Shown: positions 23,835 to 57,359 of the stretch, piece by piece
Layout of the letters: each line of letters begins with the position of its first letter
Position numbering within the stretch: the stretch's first letter is position 1
Origin: Takakia lepidozioides
Taxonomy: Eukaryota; Plantae; Bryophyta
Reading direction: 5' to 3'
DNA: 64,000 nt
Assembly (NCBI GenBank): GCA_030704615.1
Contig: CM060732.1
Span: forward strand, 46,624,001 to 46,688,000
Position numbers and translations under genes: made by a program
Notes under the pieces: generated by a model
The model's input: the letters and a program-made list of their open reading frames with translations, nothing else
Database searches by the model: none
Told to the model about the DNA's origin: nothing

Positions 23835-24143
23835 TGTTCAGTTATTTACCACTAGTGTGAAGTTAGCTAGGAATAGCTAGCTTTATATATTGACATTTGG
23901 GATTGACCCAAGTGTCAATCCAGGGGCCATACATGTTTGGGCACCTGGCGTTGTTATCTTCACGGCAGATCGCGGTGGGCTCATCTTTCTCGAGTTGAGC
24001 CTCACGCGTCTAGCTATGCGCCGAGTGTGGATTTCCCTGGCGTGGGGTTCACTTGGCTCGACTTAATATATGAGTGATGTTTTCATGTGCGGGTGTGTGA
24101 GTTTGAGAGAGCTTGTATGCTTGTATCATTCTTTTCCTTATCA
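23835..24143 (+). repeat. M1 terminal repeat B1
   Basis: Direct repeat of 47721-48035; TGTTCAG...CCTTATCA; TATA-like TTTATATA at about 23882, followed by hairpin TGACATTTGGG..CCCAAGTGTCA. Confidence 0.9.
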
Positions 24144-24159
24144 CTCGAGAAAGATGAGC
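24144..24159 (+). promoter_or_regulatory. Putative self-priming PBS
   Basis: CTCGAGAAAGATGAGC abuts the repeat end and is the exact reverse complement of GCTCATCTTTCTCGAG at 23979-23994. No TGG tRNA site is present. Confidence 0.75.
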
Positions 24160-26329
24160 TCGAGTCTGTGAGTGCCAGGTTCGAGTTGTTTTGTAGCACT
24201 TGTGTTTTCATGAGAAGCGGTTCAGCCTCTAGTGCAGGGATCCATGCGTGAGCCTATCCAAAGCGAATAGAGTGCAAAGGCGAACATGTTGCAGGTTTGC
24301 AATGAATAGAGAGGCGGGTAGCCTATGTTGAAGAGCGGCGTTGCATAGCTCAATGCTATGGCAACCAAGTTTGGCTTCTGGTGTGAAACGGAGGAGATGC
24401 TGGCCACGAGTGGACGAACTGGTGGTCATCTTCTTCAGCTGCAGGCCGAGTTACGGAGCTGCAGGAATGTGGGCTGCGCATGGGAAGTTAGCATGCTGCA
24501 GGTTGGAGATGATATGATCAGCTCCAGGTATCTGCCTGAAACTAGTTGTTGCAGGTAGATGAGGAGCAGCCGAATGGTGGAGCTGCGAGGGGATGCATCG
24601 CAGCCCGTTGGGAGCTTCAGTTCCCAACTCATGAAGAGGTATAAGTTAAGAGAGGGGGCAGGTCAATCTTGTGTGCAAGTTAGTGCACTTGTGAAACCTG
24701 TGCTGAGTTGAAGTTTCAATCTAAAACTCACAGTGTAATGCTCTTGGAGTGGCAAGAGCGGGGGGCTGGAAGGGCAGCAACAAGGCGTCCTAGAGCCAGG
24801 GAATGTGCAGTAGAACTGCAGGTGCACCAAGTTTGTAAATGTGTGTATTTTCAGATTCGTTTTTGTGAGCTTCATGAAGAAATGGAGCTTGTTGGGCAGC
24901 ATATAGCTTGCTTGTTGAGTTGAGGGTGCCTCTGATGGGTCGTGAGAGCCCAAGAGAGCATGGCAGCAGGTGCAGGAGCAAACCCAGCTCGGGAACGTCG
25001 GGAACGCCTCGGGAACGCCTCGGGAACTCGTTGGGAGTTCCAGGGAACGCAAGGAATAGTGGCCGTGATGGCCGTTGGGGCGGTATCACGAGATACCACG
25101 AGCCCAGATCGTGATGTTGACCGTGACCGGTGGAAGCCGTTGTGCGGACACAACGGTTAGCACGGTGACCAGATCGTGAGGATGGCGGGCCGTGAAGGCT
25201 GTTGGGATTGGTACCACGGGGTATCACTGGCAGCCCGTGGCCAATGAGCGCCTAGGGCGGGCCGTGAGGAATAGTGGCGGCTGGAGCCACGGAAGGCCGC
25301 GAACAGTTAGAGTGCAAAAAATAAAATATATATATATATATCTTTTTTTCACTCGTTTCGTGGGACGTTGATGGGGAGGCTGGGCCCTGACGAACACGGT
25401 TCTGAGCTAGCTGATCCGGCAGAAAAGTCAGAATTGCCTCCTGTTGCGTTTTAACAAAGGGATTACTTCCCTGCAGGTAATCTTTTTGGGTTTCAGCCCA
25501 ATTCTTACTATGGGTTAGACCAGCCTGCATGTAATTCCTTTGGACAGAATGTTGTGGGGCCTATATGTACCTCTATTTGCTCTATTTTTGAACCTTCAGT
25601 GAACGGTGTGGTTTCCTGAGGTGGTTCCATTCGGAGGAATAGCCGGTGGACGTAAGGAGGCACTGGCGGACCCTGTGGAGGCTTGCATAGGGCCTTGGAG
25701 GCCAAGTTTCATGAGCTCGTGGAGGGCGGTTTGAGGAGTGTCTACAGGATGCTCTCACGGTCATGCAAGTGAGAGAAGAGAGAAAAAAGGGTGTTGGGAT
25801 GAGAGCGTGCTTGGGATAGGCATTGCTTTAGCTTCTCTTCCTCGTAGCTTCCCTTTCTCTGTAGGCCGAGACCTTTCTGTAGGTGGAGGCAAGAGTCAGT
25901 CCGGGTTTGGGCTGGGTTGCAGGAGCGACACTATGGAGTTGTTTTTGGTGTGGGGGAGTTGTTGTTTTCATTCTTGTGTTTGGATCCCCTCCACACCTGC
26001 ATGGTTGATTGTGCGCCGTGCTAGTTTGGTGTGGGCACTTGATTTTATAGGTGGTGGACTCGGGCTTGATCGCCGATCCCACCCTAGAGCATGCTGTCGA
26101 TGGTGAGGTTGGGGTGATGACCAGTCAGACCATCTTTGTTTCTCTTGTGGTGAGGTTGGAGGTGATGACCACCAACCATAGGAGTACCTGCGATGGATGC
26201 AGGTGCAGGTGCAGGCTATGTTAGGAACCTAGTATTCCAAACCATAAGCCGCATCAGGTTCTCTACCGGTTACCATGTGGAGAGGGGGTTAGGACAGGTT
26301 CATGACCGGTTGAGTGCCAGTTTGTCAAT

Positions 26330-27906
26330 ATGGAGGTGCCACGAGTTGCTGGGGAAAGTGCCGGTACGAGCACTAGCGATATTAGCGGGTATACGAGACG
26401 AGGTGTGCGGTTTAGGCCACCTTCACCTCTTGTGTCTTCTACGGAAGGTTTTGATTCGGATTGTGAATCAGGAGGACTCACACCGGCGGTGCAAGTTGTT
26501 TCCTTGTCATTGTTGTGGGACACGATGGAGGAGATGTATGGAGCCACCAAGGGGCCACGAAGGTACTCTGGGGCGGTGGGCACCATTGAGTTGGATGATT
26601 TTATCCAAGAGTTTGATAGTTGGTGTGACTTGCAGCAAATGTGCAATCCACAACTGTTTACGCCTTTCATGGCATGGAAGGGGTTGTTTCAGCACCTTGA
26701 GGGGCCGCCCATGGATGATTACCATGAGTTTAGGCGGGGGCACGATGTTGAGATCGAGGAGTGGAGGATGTACTGGTCACCCGACTATGTCTCCATCACT
26801 AGAGGCACTAGAGGCACAAGGGCAGCAGCCACACCGGCAGCTGCACTAGCAGCAGCAGCTACAACAACAGCTTCCACGAGCAGTAGTGAGACTAGTGGTA
26901 CAGCAACTACGACGTCCACCCAAGCTATTGCTGCACCAGCACCAGTGGCGGTGCTTGCCTTAACCCTATTTGTGGAGTTCTTCGAAGAGTTGAAAGGAAC
27001 TACCAAGGGGTGAGGACAGAGAAGTTGAGGAGCTTGCAAGAGTTCCAACGGAAGCCTACTGAGAGCTTGAGGGAGGCTTTTACTCGCATGAGGCGCTTGA
27101 TTAATGTAACCCAAGGGGTTATGGAGGATCAGGCAGTCCAGTTCTGATACGGGATATTGGACAAGGAGTTGAGGAGAAGGGTGCAGGATGCAACTCTCCT
27201 ACAAGCGGCCCAACCCACCTTAGCAAATGTGTTTTGCTGGCAGAGCGGATAGAACTCAACATGGTGGAGGAACGAGTGGTCATGGTGGGATTTGCTAAGG
27301 AGGCACCACGGGTAGTGGTGCTCCTAGCCAGCCACTACCTCAACGTGCTCAAGGCAGCAAGGGGGCTCAGGTAAAGCCCAGGGAGGCAGAGAGGACCTCA
27401 GATGCAGGGGTCTCTCCCTTCATTTGCTGGCCAACAACGGGCGGATGTGGTGTGGTAGACATGCGGAGGACCCCATGTCAAGAAGGATTGGCCAGAGGGA
27501 GACAATGGTTTGGCATACGCACAGCCTACACAGGTGCAGTATGGGCATTGTGGCAGGTACGGGTATGGAGAGGCCCAGTATATGTTTGGCACCCTGAGTT
27601 GCGCCCAGGCCAGTTCCAAGGAACAATGGTGCCGGGGGCGAGGTGAGCAGCCCAGAGAGGATGAGTGGCCAGGCAGATGTGCAGGCTCAACATGGCCATG
27701 ATGCGGAGGTCAGTGTGGTGACCAAGCATGGCAACCGGCTTCAGCAGCTAGAGCCGAGGCTCGCTGCCATGGCCACAGCTCAGGTGGTACCGGCTCCAAG
27801 GCTGGATGGTCCACTCCTGCTCCTGAGGGATGAGACTTAGAAGGCATGGGATTCATCTTCGGGTCAGCACTACCACTAGTGAGGGGTGCCACTACCACTA
27901 CGGGTG
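26330..27906 (+). pseudogene. M1 gag (frameshifted)
   Basis: Near-identical to M2 gag (RRYSGAVGTIELDDFIQEFDSWCDLQQM; LQEFQRKPTESLREAFTRM); degenerate zinc knuckles. Confidence 0.9.
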
Positions 27907-28998
27907 TGTCGCGCGGTTTTACTCACCCATCCCTTCGCTATCCGAGGCGGAAACTCCAAGATAGAAGAGTTGGAAATCTCTAAGTACTCAGCCCGCGCAG
28001 AACAATCAGTCATGACCTACAGCTAGTGTATCATGGGGGTGTTTCCTATTTGTTTCCTTTTCCGCATTCATCTTAGCTACCTTACCATTGATAATTAAGT
28101 ATCAGTTTGCTTCATCAATTTATCGGTTTCCTTAACTCCTCCATTCAATCCACAGCTTCACTCAGATCTCTCTACACAGTGTGATTGTATCGTATAAGTA
28201 TCAGATTATGATTTATCAGGTATCAGGCCGAATCCATTATGTCTCTAATCTGCTCTACAATATCACTCTCGCTTTGCATATGACAAGCATCTACTAATCC
28301 TCTTTTCTCCTTCATCGTGCTCTCCGATCTCCGCTCCCGCCTGTCTCCGAAGTCCTCCCCGAATAATGATCCCTCCTATTCCCCGTTCTTCCCTTTATCC
28401 TCCTATCCGCGGTTCTAACCGTTTCCCTCTCTAACCGTCGTATGTGAACTAACATGTTCCCTTCACTGGTGTTGTTCCCCACAGTCGTTCCCTGTCCTAC
28501 TCTTCGTTCCCTATTATCGTGACAGCTGTGTCAAGCGGTGACTGGCTGTGTTTGGCTGTGTCGGGCTGTGACTGGCTGTGTGGCTGTGTCTGCTGTGTGA
28601 CGGGCTGTGTGGGCTGTGTGGGCTGTGACGACTGTGACGGCTGTGTGGGCTGTGTGGGCTGTGACGACTGTGACGGCTGTGTGGGCTGTGACGACTGTGA
28701 CGGGCTTGTGCTGTGTGGGCTGTGACGGCTGTGTGGGCTGTGTGGGCTGTGACGACTGTGACGGGCTGTGTTGGCTGTGGGCTGTGACGGCTGTGTGGGC
28801 TGTGTGGCTGTGACGACTGTGACGGGCTGTGTTGGCTGTGTGGGCTGTGACTGCTGTGTCGGCTGTGTGGGCTATGTAACCCCTTCTACAGTGCGCTGCT
28901 GTCACCCCTAAGGTTCCTGTTTGTCTCAGTCTGTGCAAAATTTAAGGGTACCCTACAGATCCCGTATAAGTGTCTAAGTCCCCTACAGTCCTCTAACA
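27907..28998 (-). repeat. G2 3' LTR (1092 bp) with GGCTGTG/GCTGTGAC minisatellite at about 28520-28875
   Basis: Matches 40321-41373 apart from a few substitutions or indels and the minisatellite copy number. Confidence 0.97.
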
Positions 28999-29014
28999 TT
29001 ACCCCTTCCCCCTC
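28999..29014 (-). promoter_or_regulatory. G2 polypurine tract
   Basis: Minus-strand GAGGGGGAAGGGGTAA immediately before the 3' LTR. Confidence 0.9.
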
Positions 29015-29035
29015 AAAAAGCCGTGTCCTCACGGT

Positions 29036-32000
29036 TTACTGTTTCCGAGTAGCAACCTTTGTGAGTGAGCACCTTGTTGACGTTGAGAGTTTCGTGGTGG
29101 GCTGTGTGTACGAGCCCGAGGTCTGTCTCTGGTTGATGAGATGGTTGATCACTACCTGGATAAGTGAGGCCTTCTGGAGGCTGATATCGAGGTAATCTTT
29201 CCGGCATAGGAGATCCCCTTTGTTTCTTCTCTTCCATCTGAATTGCATAGTCTTCTCCATGTCAAAAGAATTTTGTGAAGAAACAGTTGTATCAGAATCC
29301 TCATCGCCTCTCAGGTGTTTTAATTTTCGAACTTTTTGTGGAATCATCTGGGGCATACAATGCTGTCCTACCATGTCTGGAAGTTTGCATTTTACAACTT
29401 GGTGTAACCGTTGAACAGCAAAATTGGTGTAGACACTGAGCTCCTTGTCTGTCCAGATGAGTGGGGTACCAATTACTGGTGCCGCGTGCAAGTATTTCCA
29501 TGCGATATGTCCCTTATAGAAAATGTCATCAAGTCCGAATTTCTGTGTTGACAAATTGTTGCAGGCTGCTTGAAACCATGAACGAATTTGAGAATCCTTC
29601 TGTATCATAACTTTTGGGTCATATAGGTACATATGAGGTGGCACCGAAGGTAATACCCAATGATCTCCACTGGAGTAACTTTGAAAGCGTGCTTGCATCT
29701 TTTGTTGCTCTATGTGGTAACGTATCAGAAAACAACAGCGTAGTATAGCCCGCACCCCATGACAATACTTGCTATCTCCTTGGTCTTGGTATAAATGAGT
29801 CCATGTACAACCTGGAAAGCAACCAATTCCCTCAACATGGTACCTGCTCGTGCCAGTATTGTGCAAAGTGATGATCTTCAATATGTCGATTGTTTGGAAG
29901 AACTTTAGTCCTGGTTGCCACTGGCAGCCAATACGCATGATTTGGTAGTAATGTGCGAATGACTGCGGAGGACTAAATTCTTTCCAAGCCAAATCCAACA
30001 TGATGGGAATTTGGTTGAAGGGCATAATCATAGCCCTACTGTACTCCCTGGCAGCTGGAGTTTTAGGTGGGTTAAAAGCTGCATTGCCCCATACCTCCGG
30101 CTGTGGTGGCTGTGGTGTGGTTGTAGTAACCACAGGTTCAGCTACTGGTACACTGACCTGTTGTGGTGGTGGTGGTACTGGTTCCTGTACCATTGGCATC
30201 TCCTGCACCTCCTGTGAAGACTGAAAAGCCAGAGTTCTGGCTTGCAAATAAGAAGCCATTAGCTGTTCCTGAGGGATATAGACTCTTTGGTCGATGTTTG
30301 AAGTGAGGTCTTCCACTTGAGTCTGGAGTCCGTCTACATCCTCTTGTAACTCTGCTATCCTACTATAGACATTGTCTATAGTAGTTGTGGCAATGTTCTG
30401 CACCTGCAGTCTGAGCTCATTCATCTCGCTTTGGGTGAGCTTCCGTGGGCTTTTGCCCTCTACTGGCCCTTGTGCTAACCAGACCTGCATAAGGCTGTTA
30501 TCCACCAAGCTGCTTGTGGTTCCCCTGAGAGTTTGCTCCTCTCTTAGCTTATACAATTCCAACTGCTGTTGTAAAGCCTTCATGCGCTTCGCCTGTGGCT
30601 CAACCAATTGCGCATAGGCAGCAAGTAGATTATTGGCTTCTTTCGAAGCCTTGTTACTGACCGCGATTTCATTTCTATTGGCCACGATGGTTTGTTGCAA
30701 CTCCACGATGTATTTCTCATTCTCAGCTTCCATCTGCCTGTATTGCTTGAAAGTATCTTCATTGCGACAGATTGTATTCTTCATATCGACAATGAGCTTC
30801 ATGTGCTCCACATTCTCTTCTTCTGCCTTCGTACATTTTTCCGCTTGACTGTTTATTTCTTTTGTTGATTGGTCAAGCATAGTTGTAAATGTAGCGCATT
30901 GTATCTCCATCCTGTTATGCACTGTCTGCAACTCCGTATGTAGTGCATTCAGTTCTTGCAACTTGCTTTCATGCTGCACCTGCATTTGGTATAGCTGTTG
31001 CTTATGTGCTTCGTGCAACTGGTCTTGCGCGAGGCCTGCCTCAATCAATTGTTGCTTGGCCAATTGCAAAGCCATTTCTGTATTGGCCAAGTCCTGCTTC
31101 ATCTTGAGAGTGACCTCTTCATCGACCTTGTTTGAACACTCAGTGGCAAGTCGAGCCTCAAACTCCTTCCTGAGTTCTTCTTTCAAGGCTGTCAATTGGG
31201 TAATTGGAACATGGGTTTTGACATAAGTCCCCAACAAATTAAGTGTCCTGCCTATGGAATTCATCAGCATTGCCTGTTGAGGGTCATCATGGTGAGGTTG
31301 CTGCTGTTCCTCCCGATCTTCAACAGTATGATGTCTCACTAACCATTCAGACCATTGTCCCACCGGATTTTCTTCCTGAACTACTTCATTTATGACCGGT
31401 GCTACAGTGTCATGGCCTTCCGCCTGTGGTACCTCCGACACAGGTGTGTGCATTATATGTACCTCAGGATTTTTCTTGGGCAACTGTTGCACCTCTGGGA
31501 TTTCTGTCTGCTTGACCAGACCAGAATATTCATAGAGAAGGTCCCCTTTCTCTATTTCCGCCACTATCTGTTCTGTAGTTGGAATATCTATCCCTTCACT
31601 TTCCAAATCAATTATTTCGGGTTGAGCTGCATGGATAACTTGTGACCTTGTGACAAGTCGTTCAAGTGGCTGTGTTGGTTGTGATGCAGAAGTAACTTCT
31701 TCCTCCCTCTCTGAAGGTCCTGCTTCCAGTAATAACATTCTTTTGTGCTGCTGTGCCCCTCCCTGGTCATGAGCTTGGGAAACATTATCATGCGGAATCC
31801 GTGAAGCCAGTGGATCCGCCACTACAGTCTTTCCCCTTCTCTGCCTCTTAGTCTCGGGTTGTGCTGCTAGTCCACCCTCACTGTGTGAAGAGCCTTGCTC
31901 TTCCATTGCAGTTGTTTCTGGCTCAAACACTCCCATTTCCTTCCTTTCTTGTGCATTAAGTATGCCAGAACTAAGGATTATTTGAGCAATGATTGGGCCA

Positions 32001-33334
32001 GACACTATGATAGGAGATTTTGCGGTAGTACCTTGTAATCTTTTCATCTCCTCTACCAGTGCGTTGTACATTATGTCCGCCCATGGTACCTCTTGTCCCT
32101 TCAAGCCTTTGAGGATTTCCTCTGTGAAGGATCTGCTCAAATATTGTTGGTTCTGTTTCAGGGCAATCAGAACGTTCAATACTTGGCCTATGTCTTTTAA
32201 CCCTGGGTACACAGCTTTGGTACAAGCATAACCCTGAGTTTTAAAGAAACTCCCTTCTTGGAATAAATCCCCTATTTGCAGTCTTTCTCTGTGTTCCTCC
32301 ACATACACATGACCTTCTGGCAATCGAAACAATTGCTGGAGGTATAGGGGAGTAATCATTAATTCAACTCCCTTCACCGTTGTTGTTCCTGTCTTTGGCT
32401 CAAAGTTCTGCAAAAATTGTAACATGTACTGTCTATGGTGTAGTGTCCAATCCATGCTTTGCAATCCTTCCAATCTCAGCTCCTTCAGTATCTTTATCGC
32501 CTGTGGGGTAGCCATCGTTTGTTTCTGCAGAATTGTGGTGCTCTTCACCCTGATTTCCTCCATTCCTCTCACTCTCTTCATCTTAGACTCACAGAACTGC
32601 TTTGGCTGTAACAACTGCAGGAATGCCTGTAGTGCACAAAGCAGAAACGTATGGTTGCCGCAGAAAGCTATGGGTAATCTCTTGTAAGCCTGCGGGGCTT
32701 GCAAGCATTGTTCAAGAGAAAAGCTCTGCTCTTTCGTTTCGTGTCTCTGCCATTGCGTAAGTAATATTGCGAGCGTATAGTCTGTTAGTTCCTCCATAGT
32801 TTCCAAGTTATAGCATTTATGGCCTGTCCTGTCGAGACGCCCGTTACTCAGAACGACGCCGCCTCTTGCGCTTAATTTCCCTCCATTTTCTTGATCATTT
32901 CTCTGGTTTTCTATTGGCTGTATCCGCTGTGACTGGATTTTAACTTTTATCTTCTTTAGTGGACTTTCCCTGTTGGATAGTCCACTAGGATCACACATGC
33001 GACATGAATTCAGTTTTTCTGTACTTGCCGTTCGTTCTGTTTCCCTTTTTCCGTATTCATTAATGGGCCCGCCTTTCATCCCTTTTGACGGCCGTTCTTG
33101 TCCTCTTTCTTTTTGACACCTGTCCTTGCACTTCATTCTCTGCTGTGTGTCGCACCCTGACCTCCACGTGTCTATTTTTAAATTAATTTCCGTTTCTTCT
33201 TCCTTCAGCCATTTTCCTGAAGTTTTTATGTGTCCACTTGTCACTGATTCTATGGATCGTGTAACTTTAGTAGGCTGTGTTGAGCTGTGACAGGCTGTGT
33301 CATACTGTGTTACGCTGTGATAGGCTGTGTGCAC
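29036..33334 (-). CDS. G2 extra 3' ORF (up to 1432 aa; real start probably about 32800-32510), coiled-coil protein of unknown function
   Basis: 4.3 kb without a stop between IN and PPT. QFLQNF...VKGVELMITPLYLQQLFRLP resembles plant retrotransposon accessory domains. Long E/Q/K/L heptad region; aromatic/Cys/His-rich C-terminal domain. Confidence 0.8.
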   Translation of the reverse strand: MHTAYHSVTQYDTACHSSTQPTKVTRSIESVTSGHIKTSGKWLKEEETEINLKIDTWRSGCDTQQRMKCKDRCQKERGQERPSKGMKGGPINEYGKRETERTASTEKLNSCRMCDPSGLSNRESPLKKIKVKIQSQRIQPIENQRNDQENGGKLSARGGVVLSNGRLDRTGHKCYNLETMEELTDYTLAILLTQWQRHETKEQSFSLEQCLQAPQAYKRLPIAFCGNHTFLLCALQAFLQLLQPKQFCESKMKRVRGMEEIRVKSTTILQKQTMATPQAIKILKELRLEGLQSMDWTLHHRQYMLQFLQNFEPKTGTTTVKGVELMITPLYLQQLFRLPEGHVYVEEHRERLQIGDLFQEGSFFKTQGYACTKAVYPGLKDIGQVLNVLIALKQNQQYLSRSFTEEILKGLKGQEVPWADIMYNALVEEMKRLQGTTAKSPIIVSGPIIAQIILSSGILNAQERKEMGVFEPETTAMEEQGSSHSEGGLAAQPETKRQRRGKTVVADPLASRIPHDNVSQAHDQGGAQQHKRMLLLEAGPSEREEEVTSASQPTQPLERLVTRSQVIHAAQPEIIDLESEGIDIPTTEQIVAEIEKGDLLYEYSGLVKQTEIPEVQQLPKKNPEVHIMHTPVSEVPQAEGHDTVAPVINEVVQEENPVGQWSEWLVRHHTVEDREEQQQPHHDDPQQAMLMNSIGRTLNLLGTYVKTHVPITQLTALKEELRKEFEARLATECSNKVDEEVTLKMKQDLANTEMALQLAKQQLIEAGLAQDQLHEAHKQQLYQMQVQHESKLQELNALHTELQTVHNRMEIQCATFTTMLDQSTKEINSQAEKCTKAEEENVEHMKLIVDMKNTICRNEDTFKQYRQMEAENEKYIVELQQTIVANRNEIAVSNKASKEANNLLAAYAQLVEPQAKRMKALQQQLELYKLREEQTLRGTTSSLVDNSLMQVWLAQGPVEGKSPRKLTQSEMNELRLQVQNIATTTIDNVYSRIAELQEDVDGLQTQVEDLTSNIDQRVYIPQEQLMASYLQARTLAFQSSQEVQEMPMVQEPVPPPPQQVSVPVAEPVVTTTTPQPPQPEVWGNAAFNPPKTPAAREYSRAMIMPFNQIPIMLDLAWKEFSPPQSFAHYYQIMRIGCQWQPGLKFFQTIDILKIITLHNTGTSRYHVEGIGCFPGCTWTHLYQDQGDSKYCHGVRAILRCCFLIRYHIEQQKMQARFQSYSSGDHWVLPSVPPHMYLYDPKVMIQKDSQIRSWFQAACNNLSTQKFGLDDIFYKGHIAWKYLHAAPVIGTPLIWTDKELSVYTNFAVQRLHQVVKCKLPDMVGQHCMPQMIPQKVRKLKHLRGDEDSDTTVSSQNSFDMEKTMQFRWKRRNKGDLLCRKDYLDISLQKASLIQVVINHLINQRQTSGSYTQPTTKLSTSTRCSLTKVATRKQ

Positions 33335-33575
33335 TGTGGTAAGCTGTGATAGGCTGTGACACGCTGCGGTAGGTTGTGATAGGCTGTGTCACGTCGTGAC
33401 GGGCTGTGATAGGCTGTGTTGCGCCTTGCTGGGCTGTGATAGGCTGTGTCACGCCGTGCTGGGCTGTGATAGGCTGTGTTGCGCCTTGCTGGGCTGTGAT
33501 AGGCTGTGTCACGCCGTGATGGGCTGTGATAGGCTGTGTCACGCCGTGATGGGCTGTGATAGGCTGTGTCACGTT
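33270..33575. repeat. 30-bp-unit minisatellite between IN and the extra ORF
   Basis: About 10 units of gggctgtgataggctgtgtcacgccgtgat and variants. Confidence 0.9.
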
Positions 33576-33599
33576 TGTTTTGCCCACCCCGGTCATATA

Positions 33600-34958
33600 T
33601 ACTGGGCCTAGCGACAAGTGTTCCATACTCCGTTCGTAACACTGGTGCAGCCCGTGACTGCTCTTGCGGTTCAACATGCAAATCATGCTGCAGGGGTTTG
33701 TCATGGATACCACTGTACCCCTTCAACTTATTTGCATTGACTCTTCCCAGCATTTCTTTGTTAATGGTTTGTAACATGGCTGTGTTGTTATCATACATCT
33801 TTTGTATGACATAAGGTCCTTTCCATGGTGATTTAAGCTTAGAAGCTTGAATCTTTCCTTTCTTCTGCAACCATAGAACCAAATCCCCCGTCTTAAAAGT
33901 CTTTAATTGCCTTCATCAAACTGTTCCTTTCGCTTCATCTGAATTCTGGTCATATTATCAGCTGCATCAGCACGTACTTCTTCCACATGGTATAATTCAT
34001 GTTTCCTGACCTTGATGGAGTCTTGCAATTCCATTCTTTTTCCCCACTCCGTTCTCATGGTAGGTAACAGGAATTCCACTGGAAGTAAGGCTTCCATACC
34101 ATAAACTAATTGGAATGGTGTATACTTTGTGGTGACTTTATACGAAGTCCTGTATGACCATAAAGCTGTCAGCAGCTTTGTATCCCAATCCGTTCTGTTT
34201 GCATTGACTATCTTAGCCAAGATAGTACATAGTATTTTGTTGGTAGCCTCTGCCTGTCCATTACCCTGTGGGTAATATGTTGTACTCTTTCTATGCACAA
34301 TCATAAACTCTTTAGTCAATAACTCAATGGTCTCATTCATGAAGTGACTTCCTTGATCACTGATAAATTCTAAGGGACATCCAAATCGTGTAAGTATGTT
34401 CTCGTACAGGAACCTTGCTGTGGACTTGGCTGTGTTGTCCCTCAAAGCTTTAGCTTCCACCCACTTTGTAGTATAATCAGTGGCTGTAATTATGTACCTG
34501 TTTTGTGTATTCTTGGATGGTGGATTAATTGGTCCAACAAAGTCTAGTCCCCATTTCTGAAATGGTTCCGTAGGCATTGTAGGATGCAAGGCCATTCTTC
34601 CAGATCTCTGCAAAGGTCCTAGCCTCTGACATTCATCACACTTCTGACAATACTCATGTACATCTTTGAACAAAGTAGGCCACCAGTATCCTGCGAGTAG
34701 TATCTTTCTACTGGTAGTCTCTTCTCCAAAATGACCTCCAGCCACTCCTTTATGAACTTCCTCCAAGACTTTATTTACTTCATGGTGGTACAAGCATCGT
34801 TTTAGTACTCCATCAGGTCCTAACTTATACATTCTGCTTCCTACCATAGTATAAGGTAAAGCTCTGATAGCAATTCTCTTCCTCTGCTCCTTACCATAAC
34901 TAGGTGGGCACTGACCATGACAAGGTAGTATCTGATTGGCCACTGCCAATCTAACCAT
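33600..34958 (-). CDS. G2 integrase (HHCC, DDE, GPY), frameshifts at both ends
   Basis: HKGVAGGHF...CQKCDECQR; WGLDFVGP; FISDQGSHF; GNGQAEATNK; KSPWKGPY. Confidence 0.95.
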
Positions 34959-36547: not shown

Positions 36548-36570
36548 AGTGGCTGGTTCTTCTAGGATTT

Positions 36571-39500: not shown

Positions 39501-39711
39501 TTAATCTTTCTTGCAAAGAAACAGAAGGAGTGGCATCCAACTCTAGTTCTTCCGGTATAGGTGATGCACTTTTTGATCTTGATGGTGTGAGAGGTCCAGA
39601 TGATTCCCCTATGTCTATTCCTCTCTCCCAAAGATATGGATAATTAGCTTTCAGATAGCTTTCTCTTTTTGATGAATATCTTTGTCGTCTAGCTTCTCTT
39701 TCATCACTCAT
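36571..39711 (-). CDS. G2 Gag-protease, 1046 aa
   Basis: YSGKGDPDVHISQFE, three CCHC knuckles, VLIDGGSGVNIM, LLLGRPWL. Confidence 0.95.
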   Translation of the reverse strand: MSDEREARRQRYSSKRESYLKANYPYLWERGIDIGESSGPLTPSRSKSASPIPEELELDATPSVSLQERLRELVQEEDQSRGERSEVHPWIKDLTEIFDKSWHGTPKAGTPVSEAEDEEGDEDVAEPTESSDSPTPLQLSYMSEEETQGQNLEDENREKKLEEEEYEEVDPTAEVETTTRTSQPVGPGSSGALGSQANEGVGSGGSGGLPGSGSGGTGSVGSSATEAGNTVNIVGPEAGSAQGPPLGGRSTTKTTGPEGPAPARVPAPVSGQKVGPQMALQPTRAKPPFPIYSGKGDPDVHISQFEHMCIVNNENGDDAKMRLFPCSLIKKASEWYARFPDNHFLTWNGLNTAFRNRFRTSKTEDEVYGSLQQLKQKKHETVEEYMEKMELMMKKLAAVPAPGLQKTWFVSGLRPELQKKVDMLPHNTVEEAFETANRIEQLGMLRREKKEDEDSEDESDEEEEQELKRKSKRKEKLKRDNYEKRLEEILKKYATEAATHWRKGVWCAKCQNEGHTTTECHMKEKHCTICKMDNHSTENCYYNRRTAAREPRQVRVHQVQPQPRRSNDQDHYGRSGGYNNGMEGRGNSRGNYQGNSRGNYQGNPRGNYQPGNQDYRNNPRPDQGRGPNGEELCYYCNQPGHRKAACSFWIRHQNEMRAPVNEGPVVAAHMVRPCVVPEVSTMIVTRSKAKLIPPVEEEEDETGSGNDMPEDEETWKDEKELHKEVADTIREMQKSTDIPVADSSDSDGEKEGSEEERKKEDADMQSNEETLAEVICQTKAEITIGQLLAVAPYCRHRLYQAINRIAQETGNTDLNSKVTSYNVKPEGREPVMDFDDSMPVIQLRIGSTELTDVLIDGGSGVNIMTDQLRKKLGLSNMKPAPFTVTMADQRSVQPLGLIRGVKIQIQKMIFMITVTVLKMDEVMEAYSLLLGRPWLKQARVFHDWNSQLLTVHNGMHEIQITTKKSSRLPATRRPRGVREYDWKGGLDEEQEATLFAAHPEWEQVAEMRLESLSCLRGICCGVVTATPIEEETNCYPPHFYEEKEEK

Positions 39712-39732
39712 GTCCCATGTCTTTCATTTCTT

Positions 39733-40428
39733 TTAATGTGGCAATAACCAAAACTCTCTTCTGTAATATCTCTCGTATATGCCTGGATTTCTTTCAAGCT
39801 TCAATGCACCCTTGGCTATACTTGAAGTCTCCGTTACCATATAACCATATGGCAAACAAGTCTGAAAAGCTGTTCTTGGTGTGAGTTTGATCCACAAAAT
39901 ATCCTTTGGAATCCAATTCTTTACCAGTACAAGCTCTTCATGCATATGAGTATAAACATTCACCTTTCTTTCTTCCCAGCCTTCAAACTCTACTCGTTTA
40001 ATGGATAGCAACGCTATCACATAAACTAATGTTGGTAACCAACGTGCTCTTCCTCTACAGGCTACCTGATAAATCTTTATCACTCCTTTCTCCAGACCCC
40101 ATTCTGGATCAGCATCATGCACTCGTTTAAGAATATTTTCTTTACATCCGTCTGGCAATTCCAAGAACCTTTGAAAGAATTGTTTGGACAATCTTTCTTC
40201 CTTCGTTCCACAGGGAATTTGATTCACTTCAAACTCTTTAATGGTCCAACCACCATGATCCCACCAGATGCCTGTCACATCTGGTTGTTCATGTCCCAGG
40301 TCCCCAGTATGGTCGCCAAATGTCGCGCGGCTTTTACTCACCCATCCCTTCGCTATCCGAGGCGGAAACTCCAAGATAGAAGAGTTGGAAATCTCTAAGT
40401 ACTCAGCCCGCGCAGAACAATCAGTCAT
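39733..40428 (-). CDS. G2 extra 5' ORF (ORF0), 231 aa, unknown function
   Basis: Open frame stopping about 20 nt before the gag ATG; homologous to G1 ORF0. The only upstream in-frame ATG lies inside the LTR. Confidence 0.7.
   Translation of the reverse strand: MTDCSARAEYLEISNSSILEFPPRIAKGWVSKSRATFGDHTGDLGHEQPDVTGIWWDHGGWTIKEFEVNQIPCGTKEERLSKQFFQRFLELPDGCKENILKRVHDADPEWGLEKGVIKIYQVACRGRARWLPTLVYVIALLSIKRVEFEGWEERKVNVYTHMHEELVLVKNWIPKDILWIKLTPRTAFQTCLPYGYMVTETSSIAKGALKLERNPGIYERYYRREFWLLPH
40301..40318 (-). promoter_or_regulatory. G2 primer-binding site (probably tRNA-Arg type)
   Basis: TGGCGACCATACTGGGGA, 2 nt from the LTR. Confidence 0.9.
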
Positions 40429-41373
40429 GACCTACAGCTAGTGTATCATGGGGGTGTTTCCTATTTGTTTCCTTTTCCGCATTCATCTTAGCTACCTTAC
40501 CATTGATAATTAAGTATCAGTTTGCTTCATCAATTTATCGGTTTCCTTAACTCCTCCATTCAATCCACAGCTTCACTCAGATCTCTCTACACAGTGTGAT
40601 TGTATCGTATAAGTATCAGATTATGATTTATCAGGTATCAGGCCGAAGCCATTATGTCTCTAATCTGCTCTACAATATCACTCTCGCTTTGCATATGACA
40701 AGCATCTACTAATCCTCTTTTCTCCTTCATCGTGCTCTCCGATCTCCGCTCCCGCCTGTCTCCGAAGTCCTCCCCGAATAATGATCCCTTCCTATTCCCC
40801 GTTCTTCCCTTTATCCTCCTATCCGCGGTTCTAACCGTTTCCCTCTCTAACCGTCGTATGTGAACTAACATGTTCCCTTCACTGGTGTTGTTCCCCACAG
40901 TCGTTCCCTGTCCTACTCTTCGTTCCCTATTATCGTGACAGCTGTGTCAAGCGGTGACTGGCTGTGTTTGGCTGTGTCGGGCTGTGACGACTGTGACGGC
41001 TGTGTGGGCTGTGTGGGCTGTGACGACTGTGACGGGCTGTGTGGGCTGTGTGGGCTGTGACGACTGTGACGGCTGTGTGGGCTGTGTGGGCTGTGACGAC
41101 TGTGACGGCTGTGTGGGCTGTGACGACTGTGACGGGCTGTGTTGGCTGTGTGGGCTGTGACGGCTGTGTGGGCTGTGTGGGCTGTGACGACTGTGACGGG
41201 CTGTGTTGGCTGTGTGGGCTGTGACTGCTGTGTCGGCTGTGTGGGCTATGTAACCCCCTTCTACAGTGCGCTGCTGTCACCCCTAAGGTTCCTGTTTGTC
41301 TCAGTCTGTGCAAAATTTAAGGGTACCCTACAGATCCCGTATAAGTGTCTAAGTCCCCTACAGTCCTCTAACA
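40321..41373 (-). repeat. G2 5' LTR (1053 bp)
   Basis: Direct repeat of 27907-28998. Confidence 0.97.
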
Positions 41374-41473
41374 GGGTGGGGCACCACTACCACTGATGAG
41401 GGGTGCCACTACCACTACCACTGTGGGTGGGGCACCACTACCACTAGTGCCAGGCAATACTACCACTACCACT

Positions 41474-42580
41474 ATGTGCGGGGCAGGACTACCACTAGTG
41501 CAAGTGGAGTCAGTTGCGGCAGTGACTCGAGGAGCAGCACGAGTTCCTGAGCCACGGGGTGCGGAGGTGGAGTTGGATCCACAGCGTGGGGAGGCAAGCC
41601 ATCAGGCCAGGCTTTCTCAGTCATTCACATTGGCGGAGACAGTGTCGACGCCGTCCATGGCACCTAGTTCCCACCCGACTGTTACCAAGGCGGAGGTTAC
41701 TATGCCATTGGGGAGAGCTACACGGGCAACACCACTACCTAGTGTTGCCAAGGCTACGACAGCTAGTGTGCTGCTGGGGGCAGCCACAGCTGTGTGCCAG
41801 GCTCCATTGTTCTCGGCTACCATGATTGCGACGCCGGAGGTAAGACCAGCTGAGGTGTTCAGGCTGGCAGCGACACTCTGTGAGAGTGGGGAGGTTATCT
41901 CATCTTCTGCGGAGATAGTATGAGGTGCAGTGCCGGAGGGATCCTCGGATGTGAGGGTCAAGATTGCCACGGCGGCGTCATGGCAAGCTGCAGCTGCCAG
42001 GTTGATAGAGTTGTCAGCTAGGCCAGCCATTGAGCGCGCCATGGTGACACCTGGAGTTGTCATGTTAGACAACCAGGATGGCATTTTCTGTTTGAGTGGA
42101 CCGGCAGGCAAGAGGTACCGGCCACTACGGGTCTTGTTGGACTCGGGAGCTCAGCCATTGATGCTGAGCAGAGCTGCTATTGCACGCTTGGGCCTCACGG
42201 AGGCGGATATGGAGCCGTGCCCTTTCCAGATACAAACATCTCTGGGAGGATCAGAGCAGGCTCGGGGCATGACACGGCATGAGTTGGCTATCAGACTACA
42301 GTCGGATCATCCTACAGATGGCTCAGTGATGAGAGCCAAGGCCATTGTGACAGACGCGGTCTCCTACGATGTCCTTATTGGTGGGGCAGTGTTGCACCCC
42401 ATGGGCTTCACCTTGGATTTTTGGGAGGAGTCAGCTTCTTATAGGCCTGGATGGCAGTCAGGGGAGGGCCGGCGTGTGCAGCTCCATGTGACGTTCAAAG
42501 GAGGAGTTGCGGTTGCCCAACGAGGCAAGATGCCAACTCTGGCAGCATTCACAGCTGCAGTGACTTGGCTTGAAGAGTTG
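41474..42580 (+). pseudogene. M1 gag-pol linker and aspartic protease
   Basis: LRVLLDSGAQPLML and YDVLIGG; one stop at 41921. Colinear with M2 ORF 57360-59810. Confidence 0.9.
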
Positions 42581-43560
42581 CCTGGTCTACCTTGGTCAGC
42601 TTGGTTAGAGCCTTTGCAATAGCACTAAATCCCTTGACAAACTGTCTATAGTAGTTTGCCAACCCCATGAAAGCTCGAACTCAGCTCACATCCGTGGGAC
42701 GTGGAATCTGTGCGATGGCCTCTACCTTAGTCTGCTGCACCCCCAATCCTCCAGGATATATCATGTGGCCCAGATACTCAATCTGGTTGTGGAAGAACTT
42801 GCACTTCCCCGGATGTAATTTCAATCCGTGCGCTCTCAAGCGCTCAAACACCACCTGAAGGTGTCTCTCGTGCTCCTCCACCGTAGCACTAAAGATGATG
42901 ATGTCATCTATGTAGCACTGAGCAAAGTCTACCCCTGCTAAAATCCTGTCCATGACTCTCTGGAACTCTGCAGGAGCGTTCTTAAGCCCGAATGGTAAGA
43001 ATCGCCACTGATATAGGCAATCCTTCCCGTGCTCATTGATCCCCCAGAATGTCGTCTTCTACTTGTCCGCCTCCTTGATCAGCAACTGGTGATATCCGGA
43101 CCGCAAGTCCAAAGTGCTAAAGACCTTGGCATGCCCAATGGCATCAAAGATCTCCTCCGGTGTGGGCATGGCATACTTATCGGACTTGGTCTGACGATTT
43201 ACAGGCCGGTAATCACCGCACATACGTCTCTCCGTCCAATTGCCATAGACATCCTTCTTGGCTGGCATCACCGTGGCTGAAGCATACTCTCCACCAGAGA
43301 GCTCCACCAAACCAGCCTCCCAGAGATCTTGAGTCCTCATCTGAATCAAAGTCCTCTCCATGTCACTGTATCTATAGGGTCTCCAAAAGATTGGCGTGTC
43401 TGTGGCCAACTCAATACGAATCTCCTGACCCTTCAGTGCTCCCAAATCCTTCAAACTGAAGGCAAAGCAATTCCTGTAAGCCCTCAGGAACCGCCGTATA
43501 CGTCGACACTCTCCTCCAGTAACAATGGGTCCAATGTCAGGCTCCCAATTGTCCTCCGTA
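42581..43560 (-). pseudogene. M1 reverse transcriptase (inverted)
   Basis: RMCGDYRPVN, STLDLRSGYHQ, LPFGLKNAP, CYIDDIIIFS, YLGH. Confidence 0.93.
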
Positions 43561-43919
43561 ACTGCAACCTTAAGTCCAGCAGACTTAGAGATAGGAGACG
43601 CATCCCGTGGTTGCTATGCCGCAACCTCATGAACAATACTCCCTGCCTGCTCAGTCAATGACAAGGCCTCATCCTGCCCCATCATCTCATCCTTGAGGAC
43701 CTCCTCAACCCGAGAAGAATCCCCAACCTTATCCATCACAGCCGCCTTGGCTGTCAACTCCCTCTGAACCTCAAGCACCTCCCACGTGTGCCATGGATGT
43801 CTACACCCCGTGGTCCTCACCGGCTCGCCCCCACTCACTGCTTGTACCGTCTCGGTAGACAGAGAGACCGTCAAGGGAAGTGCACTCCGCACTCTACGTT
43901 GCTCAGCCATAGCCAAGCT

Positions 43920-44870
43920 GATAATCCAGGTCAAGCAATTTAGATCCATTGCTTGCCCCAACACCTGACGACGTGATGCCTCAGAAAGAGAAGGCACCGC
44001 CGTGGTCCCAGTGGAAAAACCCATAGCCCACTCTCGCTCGTCGGCATTAGGCTCCACTAACTACTGCAACTGAGCATCCCACAGGAGGCCAGGTCCGCTA
44101 TCCCGGAAAGCATGCGATCCTGGGAAGCTGAGCAGTGTAGGTAGTGCTGTTCGTGGTCGACCCACCTTGTTGACCACTGCCAAAGACGAACGGTCATCGT
44201 GTCTCACACGCTGAGACTGCCTCCCTGTGTCCAAAATGCTATCCATTGTGAGGTGTGCTGGCCGCTGCACCCCATCAAATGCACGCTTGAGCAGTGCAGG
44301 TGGCATCAAGTTAGTCCACCATAACCGTGGACGATGAGCCTGTGACCCCACTGCAGCTGCATCCAGCAACACTGCTGACCCAAGCCACAACCGGACTTGA
44401 TGCACACAGGCCATCACCCTGGCCCGAGAATTGCCCATCAGTGGCACATTCTCCAAGATGTATGTTGGAGATACAGCTTGATGAAGCTGTAAGTGGTGCA
44501 AAACCCGCACCATCTCCCAAAACAGACCCGACCTCGAGTCTCGCAATCCATTGTCATGACCGGCTGATGAATGCCCTTGGTAGGGCCAACCTACCACTAC
44601 CAAATCAATGGAGCCAACCCGCTCCAAATCCTGCGCCCCCAGCAATGAAATGTCTGCTGGCAAGGCCTGCTGATATCCACGAACTGCAGACACCGGCAAC
44701 AACTCAGGGTAGTGCTGCACCAACTGAGCAACATGGCGTAGGGAGACGCGTCGTGCAGTCTCATTCCTCTCCACATACAGGTAACGCCGTACCCGTACAC
44801 CTGCCTGTAGAACAGCAGCCAATCCGGTGTTGATCCCGCCAAACAAGTCCAGAAGGCAAATGCCTTCATC
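43920..44870 (-). pseudogene. M1 DNMT3-like C5 cytosine methyltransferase domain (catalytic Cys to Tyr, one stop)
   Basis: DLFGGI, YVER, GWPYQG, ENV, AHRPRLWWTNL, EREWAMGF, RRQVLGQAMD. Confidence 0.9.
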
Positions 44871-45114
44871 CGGACACTACCACATGATCGGTGTGGTGTC
44901 CAATGGTGACAACTGAGGTGGACCTGGTGCAATCCCCACACTGTCCTCCTCTCTTGACGGTACAAAAGCCTCTACCCAGGCTTGTTGCACACGACAATCA
45001 GCAACCCGCTGCAAATCCTTGCTCGAGCCCCACAATGGAGTGTGAGCAACCATGGCAGGCAATTCCGCCATACCATACATGTCATCTTGCTCTCCCGGAG
45101 GTGACACATCCTCT

Positions 45115-47217
45115 GAGTGGCAATGGGAAGATGAGCAAGAGCGAGCTTTTCAGGAGCTCAAGGCGAGGCTGACCACGGCGCCGATCTTGAGACGACCTAT
45201 CAGGGGGCGTCCCTTTCAGGTGCATACAGATTGGAGCATGCTGGGGCTTGGAGCGGTGCTCACACATGTGGATGATGAGGGAAGAGAGTTCGTAGTGGCT
45301 TATGCTAGCCGCTCGAACAACGCTGCAGAGGCTAAGTACAGCTCATATGAGGGAGAATGCTTAGCTGCAGTGTGGGCCGTGGCACACTTCAGGTGCTATC
45401 TATATGGCAATCTTTTCACCCTTGTCACGGATCACCAGCCACTCAAGTGGTTGATGGAGTCAGACAAGCTTACGGGGAAGCTTGCACGGTGGGCACTCAT
45501 ACTCCAGGAGTATGACTTTTAGGTTGTGCATCGACCCGGTTTGGTCAATCGGGATGCGGATGGATTGAGTCGCAATCCATGTATGAGCCAGCAGGATGAC
45601 ACAGGAGCTCGGTGGCATGGTGAGACGGACGAGGAGATGGTGTCGGGATGGCACGCATTTGCATTTTTGTGTATCTTGGCATCGGGAGGTCAGGTTGGAC
45701 CTACAACAGGGATGACTGTAGATGGAGTGTTTGAGGACCCTGAGGCTAGTGATGAGCCAGGTGGTGCCATAGATATACATGAGGATTCGGCTGTGTTGGA
45801 CTACCTCCGCACGGGAGACACGACAGCCACTCTGACTGCCAGGGAGAGGGATCGGATCCTGCAACGAGCCAAGAGGTTCAAGTGGGAGGGGATACACCTA
45901 CTTCGAGTGTGGGAGGATGGTCGGGTGAGGATTGTGCCTCACCCCACACAGCATGCACGGTTAGTGCGGCATGCCCATGAGGAGTTGGGGCATTTTGGAG
46001 TGCGACGCACTCACAGTTTACTGCAGGGGCAGTATTGGTGGCGTGGTATGCATACAGAGGTGCAACAGTTCGTGGCTAGGTGCATGGTGTGTGACAGGGT
46101 GCGTGCTTCATTCAACGCCCCTACACCACAGTTGCATCCTTTACCAATCATGGGATTGGGCTACAGGTGGAGTCTTGACTTCGCAGGACCGTTGCCACTG
46201 ACTATGCGCCACCACAGATATGTGTTGGTGATGGTGGAGCACTTCTCCAAGTGGATTGAGTTGGTTCCATTGCCTGACAAGGCTAGTGAGGGGGCTACGT
46301 ATGCATTCTTGGATCGTGTGCTTAGCCGATTTGGTGCTCCAGCTGAGGTACTCACGGACCAAGGGAGAGAGTTCTTGGGGGAGTTTAAGGCTTTGTGTGA
46401 TAAAGCCTTGATAGACCACTGTACCACTTCTCGGGATCATCCTGAGGCCGATGGCTTGGCAGAGAGAGTGGTGCAGACGGTAAAGAGGGGTTTGCGCAAG
46501 TATGGCTTGCAAAAGGGACACCTAGGAGATTGGGATCTTCATGTACCTTGGTTAGCCATGGGCTACAGGTTCAGCAAGCAAGCATCACTTGCCTCCTTCT
46601 CACCATATTTCCTTCTCTTTGGCCGAGAGCCGGATTTGCTTGCATCTATTCACAGGGAGGCTGCAGTAGTCCTCAACCTTGATGATCCGGATGTGTGGAC
46701 ACAAGCATGTGCCCAACGGGCAGAGTTGTTCAAGAGAGTCATGCCTATGGCTTTTGAGAATCTTGCTATTGCCCAACACCGAGACACATTGAGGTATGCC
46801 ACTATACATGGAGGGGGATATCGGCCATGTGTTTGGCGTTTCCACCCTGGGGACTACGTGTATCTGTAGCAGACAGCGCCTACGACCTTGGATGTCACAA
46901 CAGGACGTGTGATTCTAAGGGTCAGGGAGGTGTTACTTTCAAGAGTGTTGATTCTGGAGGGTCGAGATGGCATGGTATGGAAGGATCATGTGCGCAATTG
47001 TGCGCCATGTCACATTCCACATGTGGATGGGAGGATAGATCCCAACCTTGCAGTGGTATATGCAGGATTGCGTTGCATGCTATGTGGGCATGCTTGTGGT
47101 GCCGCCACTATGCTGGTGTGTGATCGATGCTCAAGAGGTTGGCACATGGGATGCTTGACACCACCTCTTGAGAGGGTTCCTGATGGAGATTGGTTATATC
47201 CACCCTGCTTGGGATAG
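45115..47217 (+). pseudogene. M1 RNase H, integrase and C-terminal PHD finger
   Basis: HTDWSMLGLGAVL, YEGECLA, TDHQPL, DADGLSR; HEELGH..CMVC; SLDFAGP, LTDQGREF, DGLAER; CMLC..CDRC..WH..C..W.YPPC. Two in-frame TAG stops. Confidence 0.93.
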
Positions 47218-47465
47218 TGGCAGTGGATATGACTAGTGGCAGCTCACAAGACATGGGAGGCCAAGCTCATAGAAGTCAATACCCAAGATCTCAGGCCTAA
47301 GTTCACAGGTTGCAAGATGACGACTAACGATGGGGCAACTCTTGTACCCGGCCTCTTGATCTATTGAGTTTGAGTGTAGTAGGGACAGTGGTGGAGGACC
47401 TAGTGAGGCTATGGTCACTTTCACATCTTGTGGCTATCTGGACTTAGAGGGACCTAAGCGCCAGC

Positions 47466-47477
47466 TAGGGGGGCGAT
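47466..47477 (+). promoter_or_regulatory. M1 polypurine tract
   Basis: TAGGGGGGCGAT directly before the TG of repeat A1; identical in M2 (53860-53871, minus). Confidence 0.85.
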
Positions 47478-47718
47478 TGTGATGGACTAGTGGCTGCACT
47501 AGTGGTGGCTAGTAGCAGCCTAGTGGTGGACTAGTGGCTGCACTAGTGGTGGCTAGTGGCAGCCTAGTGGTTGGACTAGTGGCTGCACTAGTGGTGGCTA
47601 GTGACAGCCTAGTGATGGACTAGTGGCTGCACTAGTGATAGACTAGTGTTTGGTGTGCATATATGTTGTGTGGTTTGGACAACGATGTAGTTATGTAGCG
47701 ATATGTATGCGCACGACA
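47478..47718 (+). repeat. M1 terminal repeat A1 (U3-like, 11-bp CTAGTGG array)
   Basis: TGTGATGG...GCACGACA; repeated at 48037-48309 and, inverted, at 53673-53859. Confidence 0.9.
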
Positions 47719-47720
47719 GC

Positions 47721-48035
47721 TGTCAAGTTATTTTACCACTAGTGTGAAATTAGCTAGAAAATAACTTTATTTTATACTGACATTTGGGATTGACCCAAGT
47801 GTCAATCTAGGGGCCAATACATGTTTGGGCACCTGACGTTGTTATCTTCACTTCAGATCGCGGTGGACTCATCTTTCTCGAGTTGAGCCTCACTGCGTCT
47901 AGCTATAGCGCCGTAGTGTGGATTCCCCATGGCGTGGGGTGCACTTGGCTCGACTTAATATATGAGTGATGTTTTCATGTGCGGGTGTGTGAGTTTGAGA
48001 GAGCTTGTATGCTTGTATCATTCCTTTCCTTATCA
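47721..48035 (+). repeat. M1 terminal repeat B2
   Basis: TGTCAAG...CCTTATCA; direct repeat of 23835-24143. Confidence 0.9.
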
Positions 48036-48036
48036 T

Positions 48037-48309
48037 TGTGAATGGACTAGTGGCAGCCTAGTGATGGACTGGTGGCTGCACTAATGGTGGCTAGTGGCAG
48101 CCTAGTGGTGGACTCGTGGCTGCACTAGTGGTGGCTAGTGATAGCCTAGTGGTTGACTAGTGGCTGCACTAGTGGTGACTAGTGGTTGTCTAGTGGCAGC
48201 CTAGTGGTGCACTAGTGGTGCACTAGTGATAGACTAGTGTTTGGTGTGCACATATGTTGTGTGGTTTGGACAGCGATGTAGTTGTGTAGCGATATGTATG
48301 CGCACGACA
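48037..48309 (+). repeat. M1 terminal repeat A2
   Basis: TGTGAATGG...GCACGACA followed by the TSD TATT. Confidence 0.9.
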
Positions 48310-57200: not shown

Positions 57201-57359
57201 CCAGTGGGCTTAGAGGTAGAGGACGCTCCAGTGGTTGCTATGTTGCAACCTCATGAGCAGTACTCCCTGCCTGCTCAGTCAATGACAATGCCTCATCCTG
57301 CCCTATCATCTCATCCTTGAGGACCTCCTCAACCCGAGAAGAATCCCCAACCTCATCCA

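Follow-up and report, generated by a model that had tools for sequence, protein, structure and literature searches.

It has long been debated in retrovirology whether circles of the long terminal repeat (LTR) can truly serve as precursors of integration, and in known systems they are dead ends or a side route. Retrotransposons of the PAT, Ngaro and VIPER type integrate via a junction in a circle model. Published work has reported integrase cleavage of a circle-junction palindrome for foamy virus (PMC1180852) and circles as integration precursors for HIV-1 (PMC4372172), while Tf1/Sushi elements have been described as self-priming, a property also predicted for Tcn1 (PMC6317226). A split repeat layout in a gypsy element has been noted once in print, as far as the available text of these sources goes: the legend of Fig. 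4c on KnitGypsy-Dnmt3 from Klebsormidium nitens (de Mendoza et al. 2018, PMC5890265) gives DIRS-like repeats and Gypsy domains, a point missed by an initial annotation of the DNA studied here. That paper writes the DIRS order as A-coding-B-A-B, the part of its supplement text that was available has no mention of KnitGypsy or of target site duplications (TSDs), and a 2026 preprint names the group streptophyte Gypsy-DNMT3. Here, we analyze a 64,000-nucleotide window of Takakia lepidozioides (GCA_030704615.1, contig CM060732.1, positions 46,624,001 to 46,688,000, forward strand; coordinates below count from its first letter) that contains M1, the element under study (23835..48309), and a second copy, M2. 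M1 is a decayed member of a green-plant Ty3/gypsy lineage that carries DNMT3-like and PHD domains together with a DD34E integrase. This lineage behaves as gypsy elements do, except that its inserted form is permuted: both ends of an inserted copy lie at a short palindrome within the LTR and not at the LTR's own ends. We put at roughly three in four the probability that this comes about through integrase cutting of end-joined complementary DNA (cDNA) at the palindrome.

The modules of M1 run B...PPT-A-GC-B-A (PPT, polypurine tract) between copies of a 4-bp TSD, all on the plus strand. The left TSD, TATT (23831..23834), is the sole length from 2 to 9 that gives 0 mismatches. It is followed by the 5' terminal module B1 (23835..24143), whose TG start would be the left attachment site and which probably contains the promoter, R and U5. 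At the other end, the PPT (47467..47476) directly adjoins A1 (47477..47718), a putative distal U3 with 11/22/44-bp tandem units. A1 meets B2 (47721..48035) in the palindrome CACGACA-GC-TGTCAAG (47712..47727, no strand assigned), an intact copy of the candidate integrase attachment site, and B2 joins bluntly to A2 (48036..48309), whose CACGACA end would be the right attachment site before the second TATT (48310..48313). The initial annotation had described these modules and the outer TATT, and our analysis recovered them. The T between B2 and A2 is A's first base; since A1 likewise begins with a T (47477) directly after the PPT, A starts TTG. B1 and B2 are identical at 291 of 308 aligned bases and differ by 8 further single-base gaps, 7 of them losses in B1 (0.8 kb from an N gap); A1 and A2 share 228 of 239 bases, apart from tandem-unit indels. 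Excising M1 with one TATT restores a continuous minus-strand host frame (48314..49217, resuming left of 23834). This frame had been taken for a transposase that rejoins in frame across the insertion; its continuity across TATT holds, but it has a stop codon at the site and its Pfam match is DUF7869. With a DDE integrase, TG..CA ends and a TSD of 4 bp, M1 agrees with Ty3/gypsy elements, for which 4-6 bp are characteristic.

Related copies reveal that the split layout is a rule of the lineage rather than a single event. Kin data came from four contig runs of one sample. The runs contain 36-57% of the sampled words and may derive from the source sample itself or from a relative; because they consist of contigs, they show branch points, not molecules. 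In the one run of the four used for loose-end analysis (X2; 6 of 82 loose-end rows listed), 17 contigs continue into unlike sequence before B's first base (agreement 0.41) and 25 do so behind A's last base (agreement 0.39), and all 7 of the loose ends behind B's end among the rows listed are the internal primer site (agreement 1.0). A second contig comparison gave the identical two flank sites, with 32 contigs at 48309, and in other contigs of the kin runs B's end leads back into the start of A.

Beyond these runs, we took as relatives the best 80 of 402 loci from a metagenome scan (L numbers below); a viral-contig scan returned none, and no RNA run was among those listed as containing the element. 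The relatives form three repeat families, F1 to F3, between which A and B are barely similar, and their integrases are 44-78% identical to that of M1. Downstream patterns in the 80 loci were 30 A-B-A, 22 A, 4 partial A-B, 1 B-A and 23 none. The 23 loci with no recognized module and L029 (too little flank) were excluded, as were the four A-B loci: L041 and L064 reach the contig end, and L033 and L059 have only 56-62 nt of B. Merging of shared flanks left 43 independent 3' ends, and A is the last module in every one of them (24 A-B-A, 18 A and 1 B-A, where one of the 18, L062, has just 58 nt of A). A whole A-B followed by flank occurs at 0 of these 43 ends, and no canonical A-B...A-B copy was seen among the 80 loci. 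A 5' end is visible in 13 insertions, M1 among them, and each begins at B with no A upstream; L004 and L005, left out of the counts, have B1 in part. The 8 insertions seen in 2-3 loci each retain the layout. The 4-bp TSD is exact in 6 of the 13 insertions, has one mismatch in 3 and two in 2, and is absent from 2; other lengths from 2 to 9 are never exact. The initial annotation had proposed such a classification of termini and TSDs. All ends on A, a usual TSD of 4 bp and no canonical copy are its outcome, and the X2 flank sites together with the 43 relatives' ends settle for a family rule the question that it had left between rule and single event.

Some loci deserve separate mention. At L063 (2798-2805, 11867-11874), without a 4-bp TSD, there is a possible 8-bp duplication differing by three transitions, and the left flank likewise ends -AGC before TG. 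In L033 (1743-1798) and L059 (2553-2614), A is followed by 56-62 nt of B and then by foreign sequence. The reverse B-A of L029 was rejected as a solo element, not being a clean insertion, and the self-repeats of L008 and L074 were rejected as A modules.

The A/B joint is conserved as the palindrome CACGACA-GC-TGTCATG although A and B scarcely align across families, and each inserted element has the two halves of this joint as its outer ends. A 2-nt spacer divides the near-palindrome in 25 of 25 copies (GC 11, AC 7, GT 4, AT 2, AA 1). Compared with CACGACAGCTGTCATG, 43 of 400 cells differ, 37 of them by C>T or G>A, a bias as expected from methylation decay. B's end and A's start, by contrast, differ by family: CA/TTG in M1, CA/GTT in F1 and AAT/ATA in F2, where the PPT is followed by ATACATG and B ends TCAAT. 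The TG..CA at M1's B end and A start is therefore incidental, and the earlier claim that each module has its own TG..CA ends does not carry over to A, which starts TTG, or to the families. A second attachment site had also been proposed inside the LTR. Its placement in the palindrome stands; as the outer LTR ends have no conserved TG/CA, however, the palindrome looks like the only attachment site rather than a second one, judging from the aligned copies.

The boundaries of the cDNA can be read from the same repeats. A predicted self-primer inside B1 (23976..23994, plus strand) is complementary to the bases after B1 (24144..24162, plus strand), a candidate primer-binding site (PBS) whose first base adjoins B's end. 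The M1 duplex is 19 nt long, a length reached in 0 of 200 control windows, and that of L011 is 23 nt. Overall, a duplex of at least 10 nt from the first base after B1 is present in 9 of 13 copies, with sequences that differ among the three families; the complementarity is observed, and priming at this site would be its likely use. In F2, five of six copies have a TATAAA 42-44 nt upstream of the 3' end of the primer, and the sixth has one at the equal B position. On the other side, A begins directly after the G-rich PPT. In 15 of 22 copies, the PBS-defined and PPT-defined ends meet exactly and bluntly at the B/A joint, a count that omits three F3 copies with no B1 to define B's end; the 7 irregular joints have small losses, 16-17-nt inserts or PPT-like bases (3 with PPT-like extra). 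A1/A2 and B1/B2 show no fixed differences and insertion-private alleles are present in both copies, indicating that all repeats are copied from one template each cycle. Insertion-private non-deamination alleles number 6 in A of F1 and 38 in A of F2, with 0 and 6, respectively, shared by position.

These features suggest a route in which the RNA would start inside B1 and prime itself on the bases following B1. Ordinary LTR reverse transcription would then produce a linear A-gc-B-internal-PPT-A-gc-B molecule whose ends have no conserved attachment motif. The B/A joint suggests that these ends are joined anew, mostly blunt and most likely in a 2-LTR circle. Integrase would cut CA^GC-TG on both strands, leaving recessed CA-3'OH ends with 2-nt 5' overhangs that resemble processed retroviral ends, and insertion with a 4-bp stagger would lose the GC; here the products are observed and the cut is what they imply. 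Opening of the PBS-side palindrome would yield B...A-gc-B-A, and such a copy could cycle again because it retains promoter, R and PPT. The geometry, an LTR of A-gc-B with an inserted form equal to an end-joined 2-LTR molecule opened at CA-GC-TG minus GC, was anticipated by the initial annotation. The second inserted form, B...PPT-A, which it overlooked, may come from opening of a one-LTR circle or from later A1 x A2 recombination. Age tests of B...A against B...A-B-A copies showed no consistent difference in F1 (p = 0.21, 0.51, 0.10) or in F2 (p = 0.03, 0.24, 0.13; at 0.03, the A-only copies had the higher GC content), so they do not separate these two origins.

Several observations weigh against this route. 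It is read as a whole from inserted copies, so that cDNA, circle and cleavage stand as probable steps behind them; most relatives come from metagenome assemblies, which are prone to chimeras and repeat collapse; and 4 of 13 insertions have no clear primer duplex and 2 of 13 no 4-bp TSD. No contig among those listed bridges M1's own flank junctions, a gap that would suit a misassembly, insertion of M1 into a solo A element, or a rare aberrant event in a family whose copies are otherwise canonical (A-B...A-B), as would B1's closeness to the N gap with its 7 single-base losses. We consider such an accident or artifact extremely improbable: the layout recurs in 24 independent insertions of three other families with no canonical copy, the 8 insertions seen more than once keep it, M1's TSD and host frame are clean, the B-to-A join is found in other run contigs, and at the family level the run X2 ends and the relatives' 3' ends contradict it. 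More demanding is the mirror product B-A-B...A, which makes up 0 of the 8 two-A copies in which both ends can be seen (p = 0.004 under equal use of the two palindromes). Since the palindromes of a finished 2-LTR circle are equivalent, the route needs some further asymmetry; speculatively, a kinetic preference for the PBS side might arise if that joint is double-stranded long before the other. Finally, the mutual nearest neighbors L060 and L066 have an identical irregular B/A joint, which fits inheritance of the joint.

Both of these last points suit a PAT/Ngaro-like cycle operating with a DDE integrase, in which the RNA would run from B1 to A2, the B/A joint would be inherited, and the inner A-gc-B would template cDNA ends that integrase uses directly. 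Such a cycle explains the missing mirror product with no extra assumptions and has the repeat order of PAT, Ngaro and VIPER (PMC6681497). We nonetheless regard it as unlikely, given that the self-primer site after B1 and the PPT before A1 are retained in three families, that the B/A joint falls exactly on boundaries defined by reverse transcriptase (RT), with private insertions and PPT-like remnants, and that RT and RNase H are of the Ty3 type; priming after B1 would, moreover, presumably leave the RNA beyond B2 uncopied. Cutting of end-joined cDNA at the palindrome remains our preferred reading, and within it the order of events could differ. Integrase might insert the PBS-side palindrome of the linear cDNA, with the host then joining B's end to A's start in the chromosome and no free circle involved. 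The product would be identical, and the one-sided choice and the imprecise joints (7 of 22) fit this order, but it requires chromosomal break repair at each insertion, yet 15 of 22 joints are exact; we see it as a possible, if doubtful, version.

M1 itself is a dead copy, with stops, frameshifts, a nested gypsy element and an inversion. Its domain set comprises gag, protease (PR), a DNMT3-like methyltransferase, Ty3-like RT, RNase H (RH), integrase (IN) and PHD. A broken gag-like region (26306..41923, plus strand) is interrupted by the nested element and followed by the aspartic protease (41924..42580, plus). The inversion (42581..45119, minus) carries the methyltransferase (44064-44876) and the RT (42684-43613). 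Downstream on the plus strand lie a Ty3-type RNase H (45120..45519), the integrase (45523..46866) with an H2C2 finger and an rve core in which D219-D279-E314 leaves 34 residues from D to E, and the integrase C-terminal part with the PHD finger (46870..47214). M2 and the relatives are colinear, in the order PR-DNMT-RT-RH-IN-PHD, from which M1 departs by its inversion only. Among solved structures, the RT is closest to 4ol8 and to 7q5b, the Ty3-G Gag-Pol (E about 1e-19 to 1e-18), and the RNase H matches RT_RNaseH (E 3e-36). The methyltransferase matches Pfam DNA_methylase, with DNMT3A/3B as best solved matches (E 1.5e-9); a DNMT domain match occurs in 35 of the 80 related loci, and the motifs PCQ and ENV are retained in M2, with PYQ in M1. 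Among 120 integrase homologues, of which 35 had no motif match and were left out, DD34E spacing occurs in 85 of 85, Klebsormidium and chlorophytes included, compared with DD35E in the nested element. The earlier description of a DDE integrase with no recombinase agrees with the rve match and with the absence of any tyrosine recombinase family from 55 M1 frames of at least 75 amino acids outside the nested element (8 + 47). None was found in 34 frames of L011 and 25 of L067 either, where decay of the copies reduces sensitivity, and we rejected a hidden tyrosine recombinase on the lack of a family match in M1, L011 and L067. M1, M2 and L011 have no Chromo match, only PHD.

M2 (53673..61882, minus strand) is 87-93% identical to M1 and ends PPT-A with no B afterwards; its 5' end was not identified within the window, and the two copies diverge 5' of 25656/61882. 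Its terminus reads PPT-A-GCTG (53669-53672, minus), and the 400 bp beyond match neither B nor the other sequences compared. We thus rejected the B' that had been assigned to M2 after its A. The GCTG equals the four bases that follow A in the intact palindrome and may be a chance TSD (~1 in 256) or a B truncated after 2 nt.

The nested element (27907..41373, minus strand) is a canonical Ty3/gypsy element outside M1's family, with two ~1.1-kb LTRs, TG..CA ends, a 5-bp TSD GGGTG and the DD35E integrase. It is nearly intact, its LTRs are near-identical, and an extra 1450-aa frame (29036-33388) beyond pol has no Pfam match. Related 9-10-bp GGCTGTG tandem arrays lie in its LTRs (28544-28877 and 40954-41251), at its pol end (33271-33573) and upstream of M2's shared region (61938-63064). 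Elsewhere in the window, a further decayed gypsy pol fragment (2-1883, minus) is ~70% like the nested element, and a long frame with a CX2CX4HX4C knuckle (21132-22552, plus) lies beside a 500-N gap with no Pfam match; by resemblance, we presume that it may be a LINE ORF1.

In the literature that we searched, whose coverage leaves out most subscription papers and Repbase Reports, we found no mechanism for the split layout, nor any account of an attachment palindrome inside the LTR, of boundaries set by self-primer and PPT, of B...A copies or of a route through end-joining. Usable attachment sites seem to be missing from the ends of the lineage's linear cDNA, which would thus make it a natural system that requires end-joining and internal palindrome cleavage, with the palindrome as a defined 16-bp substrate. 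A broader proposal, which we hold at about even odds, is that an old green-plant Ty3/gypsy lineage (liverwort, moss and Klebsormidium relatives, perhaps chlorophytes) moved its attachment sites into an LTR palindrome. Circles would then be the obligatory substrate, two-LTR circles giving live copies and one-LTR circles dead B...A copies, and the DD34E integrase would be a site-specific endonuclease. Finders based on LTR pairs would miss or mis-delimit such elements in bryophyte genomes, and a survey that requires paired LTRs with a TSD, as described in the available text of PMC6317226, would likely miss the lineage. Many Marchantia, Calypogeia and Sphagnum genes already annotated as hypothetical are DNMT3-like open reading frames of such retrotransposons, some fused to RT/RNase H. 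In Chlamydomonas, Gypsy-7a_cRei is active in laboratory strains and has a PHD finger and 'LTR subparts', according to the Fig. 6 legend of PMC9940879.

The nearest named homologues of M1 are in liverworts (Calypogeia, Riccia, Marchantia), then Sphagnum, Klebsormidium and chlorophytes, an order that by itself points to a land plant, probably a bryophyte, as the host. KnitGypsy-Dnmt3 is alike in its Gypsy Pol with an embedded DNMT3-like domain and in its DIRS-like split repeats, and the text available to us is silent on its termini, TSD, primer, attachment site and mechanism. K. nitens integrases are 42-57% identical to that of M1, have DD34E spacing and fall within the split-repeat clade (tree support 94/91). 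The integrases do not establish identity of M1's family with KnitGypsy-Dnmt3 itself: two DNMT homologue searches returned no K. nitens proteins, and the K. nitens integrases in the clade are not linked to a DNMT in our data. Troyka, for which a three-repeat layout had been suggested, is likewise an LTR retroelement with unusual ends. In the available text of PMC12440569, however, it has CG..CG termini, a 3-bp TSD, animal hosts only, ordinary LTR pairs and no three-repeat layout, and we rejected it in view of the TG..CA ends and 4-bp TSD found here.

With PAT, Ngaro and VIPER the lineage shares the split direct repeats X...Y-X-Y (PMC6681497), a DDE-integrase element having converged on the layout of tyrosine-recombinase retrotransposons. 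It differs from them in its DDE integrase, 4-bp TSD, PPT, self-primer and Ty3-type RT and RNase H, with no recombinase match. Canonical Ty3/gypsy elements (Tcn1, Tf1/Sushi; PMC6317226) are alike in gag-PR-RT-RH-IN, PPT, predicted self-priming, TG..CA ends and a 4-bp TSD, and the PR-RT-RH-IN order and Ty3-type RT and RNase H place M1 with them. In contrast, M1's lineage has no two full terminal LTRs (A-B at 0 of 43 3' ends, A at 0 of 13 5' ends), its attachment sites lie inside the LTR, and compared with the chromoviruses Tcn1 and Chlamyvir it has PHD and DNMT and no chromodomain match. The likeness to foamy virus and HIV-1 lies in an integrase that cuts a circle palindrome made of two attachment sites (PMC1180852, PMC4372172). 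There, the palindrome is the joined cDNA ends and the product a normal provirus; in M1's lineage, it would be fixed inside the LTR, the join would lie elsewhere, and the route looks obligatory.

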